From a virus (lineage: Duplodnaviria; Heunggongvirae; Uroviricota; Caudoviricetes), in IMG/VR virus record IMGVR_UViG_2667527522_000007: a stretch of DNA of 28,944 bases. One strand, 5' to 3'. The position numbers and the translations under genes were made by a program. How positions within the stretch are numbered: position 1 is the first letter of the stretch; every line of letters begins with the position of its first letter. This document shows positions 1-23,169 of this stretch, one piece after another. The notes beneath the pieces are model-generated. The model made no database searches and was not told the DNA's origin. It was given only the letters and a program-made list of their open reading frames with translations.

Positions 1-642
1 TTAATCGGACGCTTTTAAATTTTTATTTTTCCCAGCAGAAAAATTAGCTTTCCCGCTGTTTTGCAACTCAACAAGAGGAGATAACCGTCGGTAAACAGCC
101 AAAAGTATCTTTAACTGAACCAGTTCATCTGCCCCCGATAGTTGAACCAAGTTTTTACGTTGTTCTTCACTAAGTGCCATCACAGATTCAAGTGATTTAA
201 CTGCGTCAGAAACAAGTTCAATCTCTTTAATTTGATTCTGTATACGCAGCTTCTCTGATTTCAACTTTGCCCATTCTCTTTGTCGATATGTACGCATCAC
301 CTGATCGTAAACTTTGTTGGCAGCCAGAATACTTCCACCAACAGCAGTAACTAACTCAGCAATCTGCCAAGAGATATCAATAAGAGCAGACAATTCAATA
401 AAGCCAGGAGAGGCATACTGAATTTTTTTCACTACAGGACGTAAATCTGGTGGAGTCGCACTGTAAGCCCCTCTAAAAAAGTTCACCACACTGTGCCCAC
501 CCTCCCAAGGCATTGTTGAATATCCTCTTGATCCTCCTTTTAGGCCATAAAAAAAACCATATAGCTGCAAATACTCTTTCGTTAAGACCGCGAAATCAGC
601 TAACTCCCAACGATTATCAAGCTCAATTATAACTTTTTCCAT
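1..642 (-). CDS. Hypothetical 213-aa protein, AT-rich, just outside ogr; predicted coiled-coil-like C-terminal half
   Basis: Complete ORF with stop at window start; GGTGG-like RBS before ATG at 642; visibly lower GC than the prophage body; no family recognised by eye. Confidence 0.5.
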   Translation of the reverse strand: MEKVIIELDNRWELADFAVLTKEYLQLYGFFYGLKGGSRGYSTMPWEGGHSVVNFFRGAYSATPPDLRPVVKKIQYASPGFIELSALIDISWQIAELVTAVGGSILAANKVYDQVMRTYRQREWAKLKSEKLRIQNQIKEIELVSDAVKSLESVMALSEEQRKNLVQLSGADELVQLKILLAVYRRLSPLVELQNSGKANFSAGKNKNLKASD

Positions 643-2247: not shown

Positions 2248-2726
2248 TATCCCGCCCCCGTCATACCCGTGAATCTGGTCGCCATACTGCCAGCTTTACC
2301 GATGAGCGATTCCGCCTGTTTACCGATATCGCCATAAAGCGCGGCCAGTGATTCATCAACGCGGGTGAGCGACAGCGTAAAATCAATTTTTCTGGGTGTG
2401 CCGTCTGCAAAGAAAATACTCCCTGTTTCACTCACCCTGCTGATGACATACATGCCGTAAATCATGCCGGTGCCATCCAGCAACGGCCACGCCCGGCCTT
2501 CCTCTGCCATCAGCCTGAGCGTGGTCATCGTCAGCTTCCCGCCGGTCAGTTCGGGATAAAGCACGCCGGCAAGCGTCATGTTTTCCTCACCCACACCGAG
2601 AAACTGGTAGGCATCCCGTTTACCGATACGGGAATTTGACGGCCAGCGATAATCTGATTCACGCTGCATGGTCTGGTGTGGCAGCGTCTGGCGCATAAAA
2701 ACAAACATACCTAACGCGAGCATCAT
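2247..2726 (-). CDS. U: Tail protein U
   Basis: 159 aa, position between T and D, start/stop overlap with D. Confidence 0.8.
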   Translation of the reverse strand: MMLALGMFVFMRQTLPHQTMQRESDYRWPSNSRIGKRDAYQFLGVGEENMTLAGVLYPELTGGKLTMTTLRLMAEEGRAWPLLDGTGMIYGMYVISRVSETGSIFFADGTPRKIDFTLSLTRVDESLAALYGDIGKQAESLIGKAGSMATRFTGMTGAG

Positions 2727-2740
2727 TTTTCGTCACCTCC

Positions 2741-5188
2741 TTAACCGTCATGCATCATGCTGGCACGGGCGCGCGCACGTTTATCCCGCTCGTATTTTTC
2801 GAGCGCATCCTGTAACTGGCGGTCAAGCTGTGTCCCCGGCGCAGTACCACCCGTCAGGCTGATGTGATATTCGTTTTTACTCTGGTCCACATAAGAGCGG
2901 CCAGCCGGTGCCGTGACCGGCTGATAAGCCTGATAGCCTGCATAAGAGCTGGTCGCCGGAATATAACCACCGCTGCCATACGTGGCGGCTTGAGTTCTGG
3001 CGGCGGTCTGGTCAAGTGTGTCTGACTCTTTGTTGATAACACCGAGTTTTTCCAGTACCCAGTCAATACCGCTGCGCAGTTTGTTGAACGCATTAAGCGG
3101 CAGCATCAGCGCGTCAGCCAGTGCCTGCCCGAACATGCCCCCCGTGTCACGGCAACTGTTCAGGGTGTCCTGAGTGGCTTTGACCGGAGCAATCAGGTTT
3201 TTAAACCACTGCCACGCGGCCTGTAACTTTTCACCCAGCCAGTCAAACACCGGCTTAAGTGGCGTGAACAGTTCCCCCACCGGCGCAAATGCCACTTTCA
3301 GCCCTTCAACCACACCGCCAAAGAATGCGCTGACAGGCTCCCAGTATTTACGGATAAGCAACGCCCCGGTGACAATTGCGGCCACCACGGCCACAACCGG
3401 CCAGCTAATAGCCCCGATGGCGGTCATAACAGCACTGCCAACCGTCGTGAAGACTGCCCCCATTGCGCCTGCTGCCGCGATGATGGCATTGATGCCGGTG
3501 ATAACCGGCCAGGCTACGAGGCCAATGGCACCGATGATGCCAGTCAGCGCCAGCGCGCCACCGGCAATGATGCCGATGGTTGACGCCAGTGATTTGTTTT
3601 TCTGGATCCAGCCGTCGAGTTTTAACACATACTTTGTGGCCGTCTGCGTGAGCTTACGCAGCGCGCCTTCCTGCTGGTCAAACAGGTCAGTCCCCACTGC
3701 CTCATAAGCGGACTGAAACTCTTTAAAGTCACCGCCTAGGTTGTCCTGCATGATATTTACCAGCTCGGCGGTCTTCCCGTCTGAGGCTTTAAACGCAGCG
3801 GTCAGTTTGTCCAGCTTTCCGGTTGAGGCGGCAGTCATCAGCACGGCGGCGGCTGAGCTGGCCTCCTCCCCGAAAATAGTTTTCATGTATTCAGCCTGCT
3901 GGGCAGTACCGAGCCGGTTTTTCTCAAAACTGGCCTGCATTTCTTTCAGAATGGTAAATATTGGCCGGGTGTTTCCCTTGCTGTCTGAGGTTTTCACGCC
4001 AAGCTCTTTGAGTGCATCCCATGCTTTTCCCGTCGGTGCCTGCAGGCGGCTTAACACGGCACGGCTTCCCGTCCCCGCCATTGAGCCTGTGATTTTTGCA
4101 TCATGCAGCGCCCCGACCATTGCGGCGGTTTCTTCAATGCTGACACCGGCATTTTTTGCCACAGGTGCGGCATAGGTCAGCGCATCGCTCATGCCGTCAA
4201 AATCGGCGGCGGTTTTGTTCATCGTCATGGAGAGAACATCCCCGATATGAGCGACCTTATCGTTTGAAAGCTGAAAGGCGGATTTCATCCCCATCAGCAG
4301 GGCGGCGTTTTCTTCCATCGTGCGGCGGTTCGCCAGCGCCATATTCAGCGTGACCGGCGTTGCCGCCTGAATGGCATCAACATCCCCACCCGCTTTCGCG
4401 ATGATTATCTGTGCACCGGCCGCATCATCCGCCGAGGCGGCGGTATTGTCGCCGAGCTGGCGCGCCTGTTTGCGTAGTGCGGTCATTTCGGCGGAGTCTT
4501 TTGCCACTCCGAGCACGGCCTGCAATTCTGAGTTTTTCTGCGCAAACTCATAACCGGGCATCAGCAGCTTAACTCCGGCCATCGTTCCCGCCGCCGCAAT
4601 CCCCACACCGGCAGCGCCCACCGAGGCCATATTTCCGGCCAGTTCCTTTCCGGCCTGATAACGCTGTTTGACTGCGTTAAGTTTTGCCTGTTGCGCACTG
4701 ACACGCGCCAGCGCGTCGCGCTGACGGTTAAGCTGTGCGGTGGTTTCACTGATACGGTTTTTCAGTCCCTGCTCATCATGTGCAAGATTGCGGGTATTAA
4801 TTCCCACAGCGGCCAGTTCCCGCTGCTGGCGTTTAACGGAATCCGTCAGGCGGTTATATTTCGCCTGTAAGTCCTCCGCCGCACGCTTTGCGGATTCCAG
4901 CACTTTCGCCTGAGCACGGGTCGGACGTTCGGTGTTTTTAAACTGTGTGGCAAGGGCTTCAGCCTCCTGCCGTGCCTTTTCAAGTGCATGACCAGTCACG
5001 GCGAGCTGTGCACTGGTCTTGCGAAATCCCTCAATACGGGACGCCTGACCGTTCAGCTCGCGCAGTGATTTTTGTGTTTCCCGGATATCCCCCGACAGCG
5101 ATTTGCTCGCTGTGCGGATGGATTTAAACGGGCGGGATGCCTGGTCAACAGCCCTGAGCAATACCTGTAATTTTACATTGTTACTCAT
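2741..5188 (-). CDS. T: Tail tape measure protein T
   Basis: 815 aa, Ala/Gly-rich with coiled-coil N-terminus and hydrophobic central segments; follows E/E'. Confidence 0.85.
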   Translation of the reverse strand: MSNNVKLQVLLRAVDQASRPFKSIRTASKSLSGDIRETQKSLRELNGQASRIEGFRKTSAQLAVTGHALEKARQEAEALATQFKNTERPTRAQAKVLESAKRAAEDLQAKYNRLTDSVKRQQRELAAVGINTRNLAHDEQGLKNRISETTAQLNRQRDALARVSAQQAKLNAVKQRYQAGKELAGNMASVGAAGVGIAAAGTMAGVKLLMPGYEFAQKNSELQAVLGVAKDSAEMTALRKQARQLGDNTAASADDAAGAQIIIAKAGGDVDAIQAATPVTLNMALANRRTMEENAALLMGMKSAFQLSNDKVAHIGDVLSMTMNKTAADFDGMSDALTYAAPVAKNAGVSIEETAAMVGALHDAKITGSMAGTGSRAVLSRLQAPTGKAWDALKELGVKTSDSKGNTRPIFTILKEMQASFEKNRLGTAQQAEYMKTIFGEEASSAAAVLMTAASTGKLDKLTAAFKASDGKTAELVNIMQDNLGGDFKEFQSAYEAVGTDLFDQQEGALRKLTQTATKYVLKLDGWIQKNKSLASTIGIIAGGALALTGIIGAIGLVAWPVITGINAIIAAAGAMGAVFTTVGSAVMTAIGAISWPVVAVVAAIVTGALLIRKYWEPVSAFFGGVVEGLKVAFAPVGELFTPLKPVFDWLGEKLQAAWQWFKNLIAPVKATQDTLNSCRDTGGMFGQALADALMLPLNAFNKLRSGIDWVLEKLGVINKESDTLDQTAARTQAATYGSGGYIPATSSYAGYQAYQPVTAPAGRSYVDQSKNEYHISLTGGTAPGTQLDRQLQDALEKYERDKRARARASMMHDG

Positions 5189-7385: not shown

Positions 7386-7444
7386 CCGTTTAACTCCGTG
7401 GTTAATGGGTGAGTGATATTTTCAGTTGTGCCGGAGATGTCAGG

Positions 7445-7627
7445 CTATTTGTCCCGGTTGGCTAAGGGATGACACAATTTATTCTTTGTCGCTGATGAGG
7501 GGAATTTTTTATAGAGCGTGGACAGGCCAATATCAAAAATCAGCTCACATCCTGCGCACTCCAGCGCGTTACGCTGCAATTCCGTATTCTGGTCATTTGT
7601 TGACACGCGGACATAGCCAATAAGCAT
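7445..7627 (-). pseudogene. Serine DNA invertase (Gin/Pin/Hin family) remnant with a large in-frame internal deletion
   Basis: 60-aa ORF: MLIGYVRVSTNDQNTELQRNALECAGCELIF (invertase N-terminus with catalytic-serine motif) fused directly to DIGLSTLYKKFP (invertase C-terminal tail); about 130 central codons missing. Confidence 0.75.
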
Positions 7628-7654
7628 GATGGATCCCCTGAATAAAAACCGGGG

Positions 7655-8029
7655 ATGATGCCAGTTAGCCGTAATCTCTGCATTTTCTTAAACGTTGGTT
7701 TGGGAGAAGCGGCAAAACGGAATGTGGGAACAGGGGAAAATCAGATACCTGATATGTCATCATATGCATCAGGTTCAGGCTGGCGAAAAATGCCAGATGG
7801 TTCAATTGAACAGTGGGGACGAATTAGTTTTCCTGGTGAACACGGGCCTGTATCCGCCAATGTTTCATTCCCGATTCCATTTACACAGACACCGGGCATT
7901 GTAATTGTGTGCGATGGTGGTTTCGGGGGCGGGAATATGTGGGGGGCGACCAACTGGAGCACTACCGGCTTCATAGCTCACTGCAATTATGGTCTTGAAG
8001 GTGGTGCGTTTTTCGCTAAGGGCTGGTAA
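7655..8029 (+). CDS. Alternative tail-fibre C-terminal segment (Sv'-like), silent in this orientation
   Basis: Plus-strand ORF entering at site A with ...[11 protein letters not shown]...; Gly-rich tip; stop overlaps the next ATG (TAATGATG). Confidence 0.6.
7683..7708. repeat. Invertase crossover site A (gix/hix-like 26-bp site)
   Basis: TTTTCTTAAACGTTGGTTTGGGAGAA; 14 bp (7695-7708) is the exact reverse complement of 9508-9521. Confidence 0.6.
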
Positions 8030-8472
8030 TGATGAAATATCTGTACGTAAACAACCTGGCATATCCTTACGAACTTCAGTCTCTTTATGTTGAAAAAGGT
8101 GAATGGCCTGAAGAAAAAGGTGTTGATATAGACGAAGTAATTTTCAGGGAATATTTCTATGACACACCACCAGAAGGAAAATACAGATGTGTTGGAGAAG
8201 ATGGACTGCCTGCATGGGCAGATATTCCTCCACCAACACGTGAAGAACAAATTGCATCAGCCGAAACTAAAAAGCAGCAATTGATTAATCAGGCCAACGA
8301 TTATATGAACAGTAGACAATGGGTTGGTAAAGCGGCTATTGGTCGTCTGAAAGGTGAGGAACTGGCGCAATATAATTTGTGGCTGGATTATCTGGACGCA
8401 CTGGAGCTGGTCGATACTTCCAGTGCACCAGATATTGAATGGCCTACTCCTCCGGCAGTTCAGGCCAGATGA
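8029..8472 (+). CDS. Alternative tail fibre assembly chaperone (Tfa')
   Basis: 147 aa; C-terminal motif LDYLDALELVDTSSAPDIEWPTPP parallels the C-terminus of the convergent Tfa. Confidence 0.75.
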   Translation: MMKYLYVNNLAYPYELQSLYVEKGEWPEEKGVDIDEVIFREYFYDTPPEGKYRCVGEDGLPAWADIPPPTREEQIASAETKKQQLINQANDYMNSRQWVGKAAIGRLKGEELAQYNLWLDYLDALELVDTSSAPDIEWPTPPAVQAR

Positions 8473-9055
8473 CATCCGGCGCGGTGCTGGTATCTGTTGC
8501 CGTCACCGCGTCAATGTAATCCAGCACCGTGTTAAGTCGGCTGGTTTCTGCCTGCGTCAGATTCCGTCCGGCCCGTAATTTCAGTTGAATCAGACTGATG
8601 GAAGCCATTGCAGTATCAATCAGCGACTGGCGTTGTGCTTCTGCTGCATCTACTGCGGCGCTATGCTGTGCATCGGTATCCGTCACCCATTTCTCACCAT
8701 CCCATTTATCGTATGGTGTTAACGGGGCGATAGTGGTTGTATTATCAGGGTAATCACCCGGAGCTGTGATTTCTTTTGATTCTCCTGTTTCGGTGCTAAA
8801 GACGATTTCACCGCGATGGTCTGGCACATATTCCCATGAGTTAAAATCTGCAGAACGGCAGATTGCATAACCAGCCTTATGTGTAACTGGTGCATCTAAA
8901 CAAGAACATGCCGGGATACCGACGCCAACCGTAAGATATTCAGTTGATGTGGAAATATATTCCCGCGTTTCTCCGTTGTAGTTGTAAACGGTAATGAAGC
9001 CAGCCTCTGTGGCAAATCCGTTTTCATCCAAAGTGATTTTTTTTGTGGTCATCAT
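8444..9055 (-). CDS. G: Tail fibre assembly chaperone (G/Tfa family), expressed orientation
   Basis: 203 aa immediately downstream of H, start overlaps H stop; C-terminal motif VLDYIDAVTATDTSTAPDVIWPELP. Confidence 0.8.
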   Translation of the reverse strand: MMTTKKITLDENGFATEAGFITVYNYNGETREYISTSTEYLTVGVGIPACSCLDAPVTHKAGYAICRSADFNSWEYVPDHRGEIVFSTETGESKEITAPGDYPDNTTTIAPLTPYDKWDGEKWVTDTDAQHSAAVDAAEAQRQSLIDTAMASISLIQLKLRAGRNLTQAETSRLNTVLDYIDAVTATDTSTAPDVIWPELPEE

Positions 9056-10347
9056 GCTGCCCTTACAATGTAGTTAAATGCAATGTTACGTGGCCTTGTT
9101 TCTGCTGATGTTCTTGCACTCCTGGATAAATCAAGTGTCACACCATAGTAACTAAATGCATTACCAGTTGATGGAGCGGCATATTTAACCCCAGAACTAG
9201 AACCAACATTAAAAACTCCAGATGCTGAGGAAGCTGACCCCATAGTGTTATCAATCAGAGAACCCGTAACATTTTGCATAGCGTCAAGTTGTTCGCTTAA
9301 TAAAGCGCGTCCACTATCAACATCACGCCCGTCATCCCAGCCACGAATAAATTCACCTCGTAAATCAGGCAATTTATTTGTCGGATAAGCCTTTGCCAGT
9401 TCCGGGTATTCTTCAGCAGAAAAAAACGCACCGTTGCATTTCAGCCAGCCTGTTGGCGGAGTGGTGGAAGGCCACGGAACAGGCACGCCAACGGGTAATG
9501 CCGAACCTTCTCCCAAACCAAGGTATGCGAGAAGACCAGCTACATCCTTTCCACTCAAATGAGTCAGCGTCTCATCCAGTGGCTGCTTACCTGACAGCGC
9601 ATTGTTAATGGTGGTACTGAATTTCGGGTCATTGTTAATGGCTGCGGCAATTTCTTTCAGTGTGTCCAGCGTGGCTGGCGCACCGTTAATCAGAGCGGTA
9701 ATAGCGGCCTGAACAAACGCAGTGGTCGCAATCCGCGTGGTGTTATTTCCTGCGGCAGGCGTCGGCGCTTTTGGTTCTCCGGTAAATGTCGGATTATGTT
9801 TCTGCGCATACTGGGTATGAGGATCCTGTGCGGCAATGTGGTTTCTCATCTGGTCATCCACATACAGCCTTAATTCCAGGACTTCATCATCCACGTATTT
9901 ACGGGTCGCCAGTACCACCGACGGGTCGATTTTCAGCGTGATAGCTTCGGTATTCGTGACAACCAGAATCATGCGGATAGTCTGGGTACGACCACTGCCT
10001 TCCTGCAACTGCGGTTTGTACGTTTCCGGGCAGTTCGCCACCGCAATGAGTACGCCTTCATCATCATAAAGCCCAATCTCACGGATCCAGAATCCGCCCT
10101 CGTTCTCAGGGATGATTTGCTCCGCAATAATCTGGCTCTGGTTGTTCGGGTCAACACTCAGAAGATTCAGCGGCGCGATGCGTTTCTGGTTAATCAGTTT
10201 TGTCTGTGCCGGGTCTGGTGTCGGCAAGACACCATTCGCATCACCAACGGCCATTTGCGTCAGATTCAGCTTACTGCCGAGCATCGTCGCGTTAGCCAGC
10301 CGTGCTGCGCCCTGATTAGTCAGAATGGCGTAGTATTTCACTGTCAT
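9052..10347 (-). CDS. H: Tail fibre protein H (constant N-terminal part plus variable C-terminal part inside the invertible segment)
   Basis: 431 aa; Mu S / P2 H-like N-terminus; crossover site within codons LAYLGLGEGS; C-terminal region resembles a phage tail-collar domain. Confidence 0.85.
   Translation of the reverse strand: MTVKYYAILTNQGAARLANATMLGSKLNLTQMAVGDANGVLPTPDPAQTKLINQKRIAPLNLLSVDPNNQSQIIAEQIIPENEGGFWIREIGLYDDEGVLIAVANCPETYKPQLQEGSGRTQTIRMILVVTNTEAITLKIDPSVVLATRKYVDDEVLELRLYVDDQMRNHIAAQDPHTQYAQKHNPTFTGEPKAPTPAAGNNTTRIATTAFVQAAITALINGAPATLDTLKEIAAAINNDPKFSTTINNALSGKQPLDETLTHLSGKDVAGLLAYLGLGEGSALPVGVPVPWPSTTPPTGWLKCNGAFFSAEEYPELAKAYPTNKLPDLRGEFIRGWDDGRDVDSGRALLSEQLDAMQNVTGSLIDNTMGSASSASGVFNVGSSSGVKYAAPSTGNAFSYYGVTLDLSRSARTSAETRPRNIAFNYIVRAA
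9508..9533. repeat. Invertase crossover site B (gix/hix-like), inside H
   Basis: TTCTCCCAAACCAAGGTATGCGAGAA; imperfect palindrome with AAACC-AA-GG core like gix/hix. Confidence 0.6.
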
Positions 10348-22087: not shown

Positions 22088-22092
22088 ACATC

Positions 22093-22114
22093 GCCGCCTG
22101 CGGGCGGCTTTTTT
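22093..22114 (+). terminator. Rho-independent terminator after Q
   Basis: gccgcc-tgcg-ggcggc followed by tttttt. Confidence 0.6.
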
Positions 22115-22256
22115 ACACCCCGCCATCACGCCCTCACACGCTCACCACCGCACAAAACAGCCCGCAGACACACCAACGCCCCGGCGAACAATCTAAACGC
22201 CATCACGACGCGCTCAGACGCTGAAAAAATAAAATCAGCACCACCGCCAGCGCGCA

Positions 22257-22275
22257 GTGCTTTCCCCGCCTCGCC
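22257..22275. other. cos cohesive-end site (19 nt)
   Basis: gtgctttccccgcctcgcc is the reverse complement of GGCGAGGCGGGGAAAGCAC, the P2 cohesive end as I remember it; lies just after Q as in P2. Confidence 0.6.
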
Positions 22276-22560
22276 CGCCCGCTTCACGGGGCGGTTTTAA
22301 TGCAGTTGCATAGATACTATGGATCCGCACCAGTCCTGACCGCACGCCGCCTGAACGGACATCCCCAACGCATGCAAAAACATTCACTTGTTGCATGCAT
22401 AGCTTTTTAAGTACGCCATACCGCAACTGTACATTTTTAAGCAATTGGCAACTTTAAAAAATTTACATTGCTTTCAAGACCTTATCATCCGTAGTCTCTG
22501 TTTTTTACTTTGAGCTACATCAATAAAATCTCAAACATGTTTAATGCAAAGCCCTTGTTA

Positions 22561-22615
22561 CACAACATAGAATGTATGCCTAGAAACAACGACATACTAT
22601 ATGTTGTGTTTTTCC
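22561..22615 (+). other. Long imperfect hairpin with U-tract (candidate sRNA 3' end or attenuator) in the accessory cassette
   Basis: cacaacata...tatgttgtg 9-bp outer stem with an inner gtatg/catac stem, followed by ttttt; possible promoter TTTACA-15-TATCAT about 80 bp upstream (22462-22488). Confidence 0.3.
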
Positions 22616-22675
22616 GGCTCTCTGTTCGGTGATATGCCAAATCACTTTGCGTTTAAACAGAGCATTATTTCAGGG

Positions 22676-22690
22676 CAAGACTTCGCTCAA
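22676..22690 (+). repeat. 15-bp direct repeat, copy 1 (caagacttcgctcaa)
   Basis: Exact 15-mer repeated at 22940-22954. Confidence 0.5.
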
Positions 22691-22753
22691 AAGTCATTCC
22701 ACCTAAGAAGCGCATATACCGGTGGAAGTTGCCCTCTACTTACAGGAGGCAAT

Positions 22754-22867
22754 ATGAAGAAATGCTATTACTGCATTCTCGTTCTGGCCCTCTTTGGCTA
22801 TCCAAACGGTAGTCCGAGTGGTTTGTCAGTAAACGTCAGTAATATCAATGTCAGCATTATGCTTTAA
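22754..22867 (+). CDS. Small 37-aa hydrophobic peptide, function unknown (candidate moron or small toxin-like peptide)
   Basis: AGGAGG 4 nt upstream of ATG; MKKCYYCILVLALFGYPNGSPSGLSVNVSNINVSIML; terminator immediately downstream; the 88-aa track ORF 22601..22867 has no RBS. Confidence 0.3.
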   Translation: MKKCYYCILVLALFGYPNGSPSGLSVNVSNINVSIML

Positions 22868-22880
22868 TATGCTTCAAACA

Positions 22881-22910
22881 AAAAAACCACCTGCCAGGGT
22901 GGTTTTTTTG
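22881..22910. terminator. Bidirectional rho-independent terminator (A-tract, hairpin, T-tract)
   Basis: aaaaaaccacc-tgccag-ggtggttttttt; could terminate both the small-ORF transcript and the convergent early operon ending with A. Confidence 0.6.
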
Positions 22911-22939
22911 CGCCCATCATCAATACGATGAAAGACTGA

Positions 22940-22954
22940 CAAGACTTCGCTCAA
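22940..22954 (+). repeat. 15-bp direct repeat, copy 2 (caagacttcgctcaa)
   Basis: Exact copy of 22676-22690; the pair brackets the small ORF and terminator. Confidence 0.5.
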
Positions 22955-23169
22955 GACGAATTATGCGTCGACATAAGGTTACCCGCAATGATTTTATTAG
23001 ACTAAATGGATGGCCTTTTATGACCCGGATCAAACGGCTGTCCTTACCGACATGCTAGTCACTCAATAGCATTTAGCCTTCTAATTCAGCATGCTATTGA
23101 CCTTCTGCTGCCCCATAACTGCTCCGCATAAGCCATTCAATGCCATATCAAATCACGTTGTGTTTTTAC

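Follow-up and report, generated by a model that had tools for sequence, protein, structure and literature searches.

Serine invertases use a Ser10 nucleophile together with downstream catalytic Arg and Asp residues. Cross-complementation among Gin, Cin, Pin and Hin has long been established, and action in trans is classical for this invertase family. The G segment of phage Mu, with Gin and the sis enhancer, and the H segment of Salmonella, with Hin and the hin enhancer, both belong to this family and both have 26-bp crossover sites, as does the locus described here. The hin enhancer is 65 bp long, carries one Fis site at each end and lies ~100 bp from one hix site (PMC3798978). For the P segment of e14 in E. 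coli K-12, whose own invertase is PinE, inversion by invertases encoded elsewhere is documented: PinQ and PinR of the cryptic prophages Qin and Rac were shown experimentally to invert it, and both the H segment and Mu G are in turn inverted by PinE (PMC12529663). According to the same paper, Fin of Fels-2 inverts the Salmonella H segment as well (PMC12529663). The fibre loci of P2-like prophages are known to phase-vary in E. coli cultures (PMC4272514). Such loci are found in pro483, in the Escherichia phage P2 record from E. coli O157:H43 str. T22, in Fels-2 (with Fin) and in the prophages of EPEC E2348/69, in the order fibre H, chaperone, inverted chaperone plus tip, invertase and sheath. The locus studied here has the same gene order, and its invertase DNA is 93–94% identical to that of pro483 and the T22 record and 77% identical to that of Fels-2. 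However, the invertase is intact in all these P2-like loci, whereas the allele described below has a 411-bp internal deletion.

The window, that is, the whole stretch of 28,944 nucleotides that was analysed, is one P2-like prophage of E. coli MNCRE44. It is located between cpxP and fieF on the chromosome (NZ_CP010876.1) and runs from the integrase to ogr and a final hypothetical gene; a query of 335 bp was 100% identical to this chromosome, and 8.3 kb was found there verbatim. In the RefSeq annotation of the MNCRE44 prophage, all phage genes are intact except one "recombinase family protein", an incomplete pseudogene that corresponds to the ORF at 7445–7627, so this ORF is already known as a pseudogene. 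No second serine recombinase encoded in the window was detected by tblastn, and an Rfam scan of the window gave no match. Compared with e14, which is a cryptic lambdoid remnant, the prophage here is apparently complete and P2-like, and the invertase adjacent to its segment is deleted, so that any inversion must take place in trans. We consider it likely that a single deletion between copies of a 12-bp repeat killed the invertase, and that the segment, now non-autonomous, is still flipped in trans by a related invertase.

The ORF at 7445–7627 (minus strand) has 60 codons, and its product is MLIGYVRVSTNDQNTELQRNALECAGCELIFDIGLSTLYKKFPSSATKNKLCHPLANRDK. It consists of residues 1–31 joined to residues 169–197 of a 197-aa serine invertase of the Pin/Gin type. 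The full-length allele is present in E. coli EC0885 and has 87% identity to e14 PinE and 77% identity to Mu Gin. In an alignment with Gin (PDB 4m6f/3uj3, E=3e-18), residues 1–37 of the remnant correspond to Gin 1–37 and residues 26–45 to Gin 163–182. The tail resembles the last helix of the Hin DNA-binding domain, covering residues 27–51 of 52 only. The Pfam Resolvase profile (PF00239) is matched over positions 2–42 of 145 only, and no Pfam HTH match was found in the remnant. Ser10 is kept, but the remaining active site has gone with residues 32–168, and the two stretches aligned with Gin contain neither the oligomerisation helix E nor a complete C-terminal HTH. The remnant sits between the sheath gene and a crossover site, just as the invertase gene does in EC0885 and in phage pro483. 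As judged from translation, structural and Pfam alignment and comparison with EC0885, it descends from the serine-invertase family and cannot be a recombinase, because nearly all of the catalytic domain, helix E and two of the HTH helices are deleted. The first-pass annotation had recognised the ORF, from the letters alone, as an in-frame internal-deletion remnant of a Gin/Pin/Hin-type invertase without its catalytic core and most of its DNA-binding domain, and these alignments bear it out on both points. The opposite case that it envisaged, a complete small protein unrelated to serine invertases, does not agree with the homology to Gin and with a DNA sequence collinear with the full-length allele except for the 411-bp gap.

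Relative to the EC0885 allele, exactly 411 bp is missing, corresponding to CDS nt 96–506 or 137 codons (32–168). The junction was set by exact prefix/suffix comparison; MAFFT misplaced the 3′ block of the remnant. The deletion takes away nearly all of the catalytic domain together with helix E, and the HTH DNA-binding domain is left without its helices one and two. In the full gene, the 12-mer GCTGATTTTTGA occurs twice, at CDS nt 84–95 and 495–506, the two copies being 411 = 3 × 137 bp apart. The gene has no other direct repeat of 12 bp and none that is longer, ~0.01 such repeats being expected by chance, and each copy of the 12-mer encodes Leu-Ile-Phe-(Glu/Asp) in the same frame. In the window, a single copy survives at the deletion junction (7533–7544, minus strand; CDS nt 84–95), which agrees with the earlier placing of the junction near 7533–7538. 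Deletion between microhomologies is a long-established principle, and one slipped-strand or microhomology deletion between the two copies of GCTGATTTTTGA would have removed codons 32–168 in a single step. Since the copies share the same frame and are 3 × 137 bp apart, a slippage deletion between them is necessarily in frame. The in-frame junction, which had been singled out as notable, therefore follows from the spacing of the repeat.

The substrate of the lost enzyme is well preserved. An inverted repeat found mechanically at 7683–7709 and 9507–9533 resolves to two 26-bp crossover sites, in each of which a 2-bp core is flanked by two 12-bp halves. The invertase-proximal site (7683–7708) has its outer half at 7683–7694, its core (TT/AA) at 7695–7696 and its inner half at 7697–7708. 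The distal site (9508–9533), located in the fibre gene, has its inner half at 9508–9519, its AA core at 9520–9521 and its outer half at 9522–9533, and encodes a conserved LGLGE joint. The inner halves of the two inverted sites are identical (TTCTCCCAAACC), both cores are AA, and the sites have a 15–17 bp identical stretch in common. In EC0885, the site adjoining the intact invertase has the same sequence as the proximal site, and the counterpart of the distal site differs by 1 nt. The e14 element of K-12, which also has two tip/chaperone cassettes, combines TTCTCCCAAACC with an AA core, and so does an e14-like prophage in E. coli M8. The earlier view that both crossover sites are intact is thus correct.

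The invertible segment between the sites (7697–9519, ~1.8 kb) carries two alternative fibre tips with their chaperones. There are 1797 nt between the repeats, and the P segment of e14 is likewise given as 1797 bp (PMC12529663), but the e14 and window segments have only ~86–89% identity over parts. On the plus strand, a silent (OFF) alternative fibre C-terminus of the Gp53-like_C type at 7709–8029 (Pfam; mechanical ORF 7655–8029) is followed by its silent tail-fibre assembly chaperone of 147 aa at 8029–8472. On the minus strand are the expressed chaperone of the ON tip (8444–9055, 202/203 aa) and the tail fibre gene (9052–10347, 431 aa), which is P2 H-like and combines a constant N-terminus of 280 aa with a Collar-type tip (Pfam). 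Both chaperone assignments are based on ORF, RefSeq and Pfam. When 7695–9521 was inverted in silico, the 280-aa constant part was joined in frame to the Gp53-like tip to give a 386-aa fibre, and the 147-aa chaperone came directly after it. The two oppositely oriented tip/chaperone pairs, open and with the expected Pfam domains, were already described as apparently intact in the first-pass annotation, and the simulated inversion agrees with this.

Nearly the same segment was observed in another kind of prophage. Window 7690–9521 and positions 2491–4322 of locus L020 (E. coli M8, NZ_CP019953.1) are 99.9% identical over 1,832 bp, including both sites. The M8 carrier is a prophage with an e14/Mu-like baseplate inserted at dusA, and is represented in three mouse E. 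coli genomes; its Gp53-like tip is joined to the fibre gene, and the intact invertase adjoining the segment is only ~53% identical to the Pin-like family present here. From such comparisons, fibre-switch cassettes seem to move between prophage families as units and to work with divergent invertases.

With respect to its sites and cassettes, the locus belongs with the Mu G, P1 C and e14 P segments and appears to be a simple inversion system of two sites and two states; a Fis-like motif pair is present as well, and what is missing is the cognate invertase next door, where only the 60-codon remnant is found. Unlike the Mu G and H segments, it has no catalytic protein of its own, and its cassettes are unrelated to the flagellin control exerted by the H segment. 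It had previously been called a shufflon, which is a misnomer. The R64-type shufflon (Rci) resembles it in that the C-terminus of a cell-surface adhesin or fibre is varied by inversion. However, the R64 shufflon has many sfx sites, and its more than two recombination sites give several permutations; Rci is a tyrosine recombinase. By contrast, two sites only are present in the window, as in nine of ten related loci, and the ancestry is that of a serine invertase.

The 5′ end of the gene, spared by the deletion, contains a predicted Fis-dependent recombinational enhancer (7543–7605). Exactly one pair of Fis-like 15-mers with a centre spacing of 48 bp exists in the retained 5′ 95 bp, formed by TGTCAACAAATGACC at 7591–7605 (CDS nt 23–37) and GCGCAGGATGTGAGC at 7543–7557 (CDS nt 71–85). 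The chance expectation of such a pair in a stretch of that size is 0.0065. A Fis-like pair is found at the same codons in e14 pinE, in the full-length allele and in Mu gin, where it likewise lies in the 5′ coding region with 48 bp between the two, although coding constraint confounds this conservation. The Mu record has no annotated enhancer. The centre of the proximal core is ~97 bp from the crossover core, similar to the ~100 bp between the hin enhancer and the nearer crossover site (PMC3798978). The deletion starts 10 bp past the distal core, and the predicted enhancer is therefore complete. On the basis of motif, position and conservation, we infer that the pair acts as a recombinational enhancer. 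This gives substance to the earlier remarks that the enhancer end of the gene had been kept and that Fis sites should be sought in 7540–7627. All that the switch would need in cis, namely the crossover sites, the in-frame cassettes and the 5′ 95 bp with the predicted enhancer, would then have survived, and the segment would be a non-autonomous invertible element, incapable of flipping alone.

The deleted allele is common. A megablast search with 7386–7720 against 5,426 complete E. coli genomes found the locus in ~400 of them, and most of these have an additional 411 bp between the two query halves. The junction 40-mer occurs in 25 of the 5,426 genomes, and the exact 60-aa product is encoded on 434 contigs, with a few missense variants (P54L on 24 contigs, N11S, C24F, A56T and R58W) on ~30 more. 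A sequencing or assembly artefact that conceals a full-length invertase, also envisaged at the outset, is practically out of the question, given the identical junction in independently sequenced complete genomes and in hundreds of contigs from several sources. The same uniformity might be taken to mean that the 60-aa product is a functional small protein under selection, for instance as a regulator or by partnering related invertases in a dominant-negative way, the more so as the start, the ribosome-binding context and a natural stop are kept. We regard this as extremely improbable. Of the catalytic domain only strand 1/helix A is left, and of the HTH only the last helix, which makes an independent fold unlikely; missense variants exist, and RefSeq calls the gene a pseudogene. 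The uniformity, moreover, is equally explained by a recent origin and by a role of the enhancer at the DNA level.

In ten carrier loci retrieved by exact protein identity, the remnant adjoins fibre segments of either arrangement, and the dinucleotides immediately within the two ends of the segment (GC or CC) exchange places according to the arrangement. This alone does not demonstrate flipping after the deletion, since some of the orientation diversity across all carriers could predate the deletions and is not to be counted as flips. A remnant with A47 exists, locus L015 has a different 5′ haplotype, and these point to a deletion that may have arisen or been transferred more than once. The substitution A47T was considered as a marker of a single origin and was rejected, T47 being common in full-length alleles. 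Carriers with identical remnants hold different tip sets, i.e. cassettes have been exchanged between prophages. All of this could be accommodated by a switch that has been frozen, with no inversion since the deletion, and in which identical deletions recurred or the deleted allele was recombined into prophages of either orientation. The 12-bp repeat is an obvious hotspot for recurrent deletion, remnants stand on at least two haplotype backgrounds, many full-length alleles share T47, and cassettes have clearly been swapped. Nevertheless, we find a frozen switch unlikely in view of one narrow group of carriers.

Two carriers, L009 and L010, are 99.93% and 99.95% identical in their flanks (99.9% over 8 kb), and the 1,203-bp segment between the flanks is 99.83% identical but inverted, with alignments that overlap by the 17-bp shared repeat; orientation is the sole difference between them. 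Both have a common SNP between the remnant and the sheath gene, which defines the 4204A haplotype. Among the 5,426 E. coli genomes, a 201-bp query containing this SNP gave 100% identity in 16 complete genomes, 16 of 16 being deletion carriers, and the nearest full-length loci differ from the query. Within this group, AR_0137, 1000C-3 and DETEC-S560 have one orientation, and Y5, GYB01, strain 1000, OZ547259 and OZ547064 have the opposite one, with a junction that is 100% identical and directly beside the remnant. A clean inversion of a 1,866-bp segment, with 99.89% identity, was also found between NCTC10973 and an ENA contig. Because the 4204A SNP is seen only with the deletion yet includes both orientations, with breakpoints inside the sites, the comparison argues for inversion after the deletion, and one deletion followed by inversions at the crossover sites is the simplest reading of the 4204A group. 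Neither the A47 remnant, L015 and T47 nor the exchange of cassettes accounts for both orientations inside the group. A frozen switch has to invoke either the same deletion twice independently or a transfer confined to 183 bp, within a common background of very recent date, and to do so for a haplotype that is deletion-only among the genomes searched and has several genomes per orientation. The choice between inversion in trans and a frozen host-range state, which had been left open at first, thus tips towards the former on the comparative evidence from 4204A carriers, and the latter is disfavoured.

The flips in carriers might have been produced without any invertase, by homologous recombination of the RecA type between the short inverted repeats, given that the sites have 15–17 bp of identity and that the trans-acting enzyme has not been directly identified. 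This, too, is highly unlikely in our opinion. An identity of ~17 bp is below the length for efficient RecA recombination, the breakpoints coincide with functional crossover sites, and the flips recur in a narrow lineage. Furthermore, most E. coli genomes have related invertases, and inversion of an equivalent segment in trans has been demonstrated experimentally (PMC12529663).

For the window itself, the exact cassette pair in the opposite orientation was not found next to the deletion, where only other cassette sets were seen; flipping in MNCRE44 is accordingly a prediction from relatives with other cassette sets.

Two of the carriers have segments of irregular appearance. In one of them (GCA_000408365.1, KE137028.1; locus L016, 3069–3918), the segment is replaced by an 850-N scaffold gap whose ends are exactly the two crossover sites. 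Short-read assemblers leave such gaps when both orientations coexist, and other causes are possible; the gap is only suggestive, hinting at both orientations in the sequenced culture. In the other (GCA_964043915.1; locus L011, 2572–3936), the right flank is 100% identical to the window. Its cassettes are arranged in an aberrant or recombinant manner: the segment contains two Collar-type tips, which share ~87% identity, a chaperone is truncated, and CC is the inner flank on either side.

As for the enzyme, candidates are plentiful in E. coli. Of the 5,426 genomes, 4,466 (82%) have one or more places similar to the deleted 399-bp core, with a median of two places per genome, and in 2,744 (51%) one place covers at least 80% of the core. 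On the MNCRE44 chromosome, a query with the cassette region matches 3 places, and the same query plus the 411-bp core matches 4; therefore, at least one further core-like locus exists in this strain. As it is known from the match count only, this locus could be incomplete or have diverged too far to act. The search for a host invertase that had been recommended thus yielded an additional core-like place, but an intact Gin-family invertase was not pinpointed. The dusA site, occupied by the related prophage in M8, is empty in MNCRE44.

In another ST131 genome, that of E. coli strain 4224 (NZ_CP103592.1; locus L022, 5362–5928), a second, diverged P2-like prophage with an HP1-family holin was observed. 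Its invertase (188 aa) is intact and shares 86% identity with the full-length allele, and its cassettes are 92–93% identical to those of the window. MNCRE44 was not among the best 60 matches listed in a search with this prophage. Judged by its sequence, an element of this sort, if co-resident, could act in trans.

We propose that a related invertase supplied by a co-resident prophage or plasmid would, together with host Fis, flip the segment, as comparative genomics suggests; the invertase of another prophage probably still operates the fibre switch. The locus is an ordinary member of a well-known kind, and its interest is modest, lying in the comparative evidence of inversion without an enzyme of its own and in an enhancer spared to the very edge of the deletion. 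Even so, it illustrates how a prophage can keep a phase-variation switch after losing the recombinase that belonged to it, since related invertases encoded elsewhere in the cell recognise the crossover sites and the enhancer. Hence, annotation of an invertase as a pseudogene does not imply that the tail-fibre, host-range locus is fixed, and the orientation given in an assembly of such a locus may be an average over the population. The locus also lends itself, as a natural experiment, to testing whether an enhancer is needed in cis and whether prophage invertases cross-talk.

A more speculative view, to which we give little credence at present, is that the deletion allele is not mere decay but a successful non-autonomous switch, which lost the enzyme, spared the Fis enhancer and borrows the Pin-family invertases present in most E. 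coli. If this were true, host-range switching would come at no coding cost, much as a MITE borrows its transposase; the wide occurrence of the allele, which is found in hundreds of assemblies, in diverse hosts and seemingly at several positions on the chromosome, would reflect selection for this dependence, or at least its tolerance; and fibre switching of the phage would be coupled to the resident prophage community.

Two accessory positions of the prophage were observed in addition. At the P2 old/tin position, 1.08 kb lies between the portal gene and replication gene A (22088–23169), in which RefSeq annotates no gene, ORFs do not exceed 88 aa and Rfam gives no match. Next to ogr, in the accessory hotspot of the P2 Z/fun type, the terminal gene of the prophage (1–642, minus strand) is annotated as hypothetical and is without a Pfam match. 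It has a PADLOC match to PD-T4-10_B (E=1e-34), with no partner 'A' gene in the neighbourhood, fieF being next in the chromosome, and it may be an orphan or single-gene anti-phage moron.
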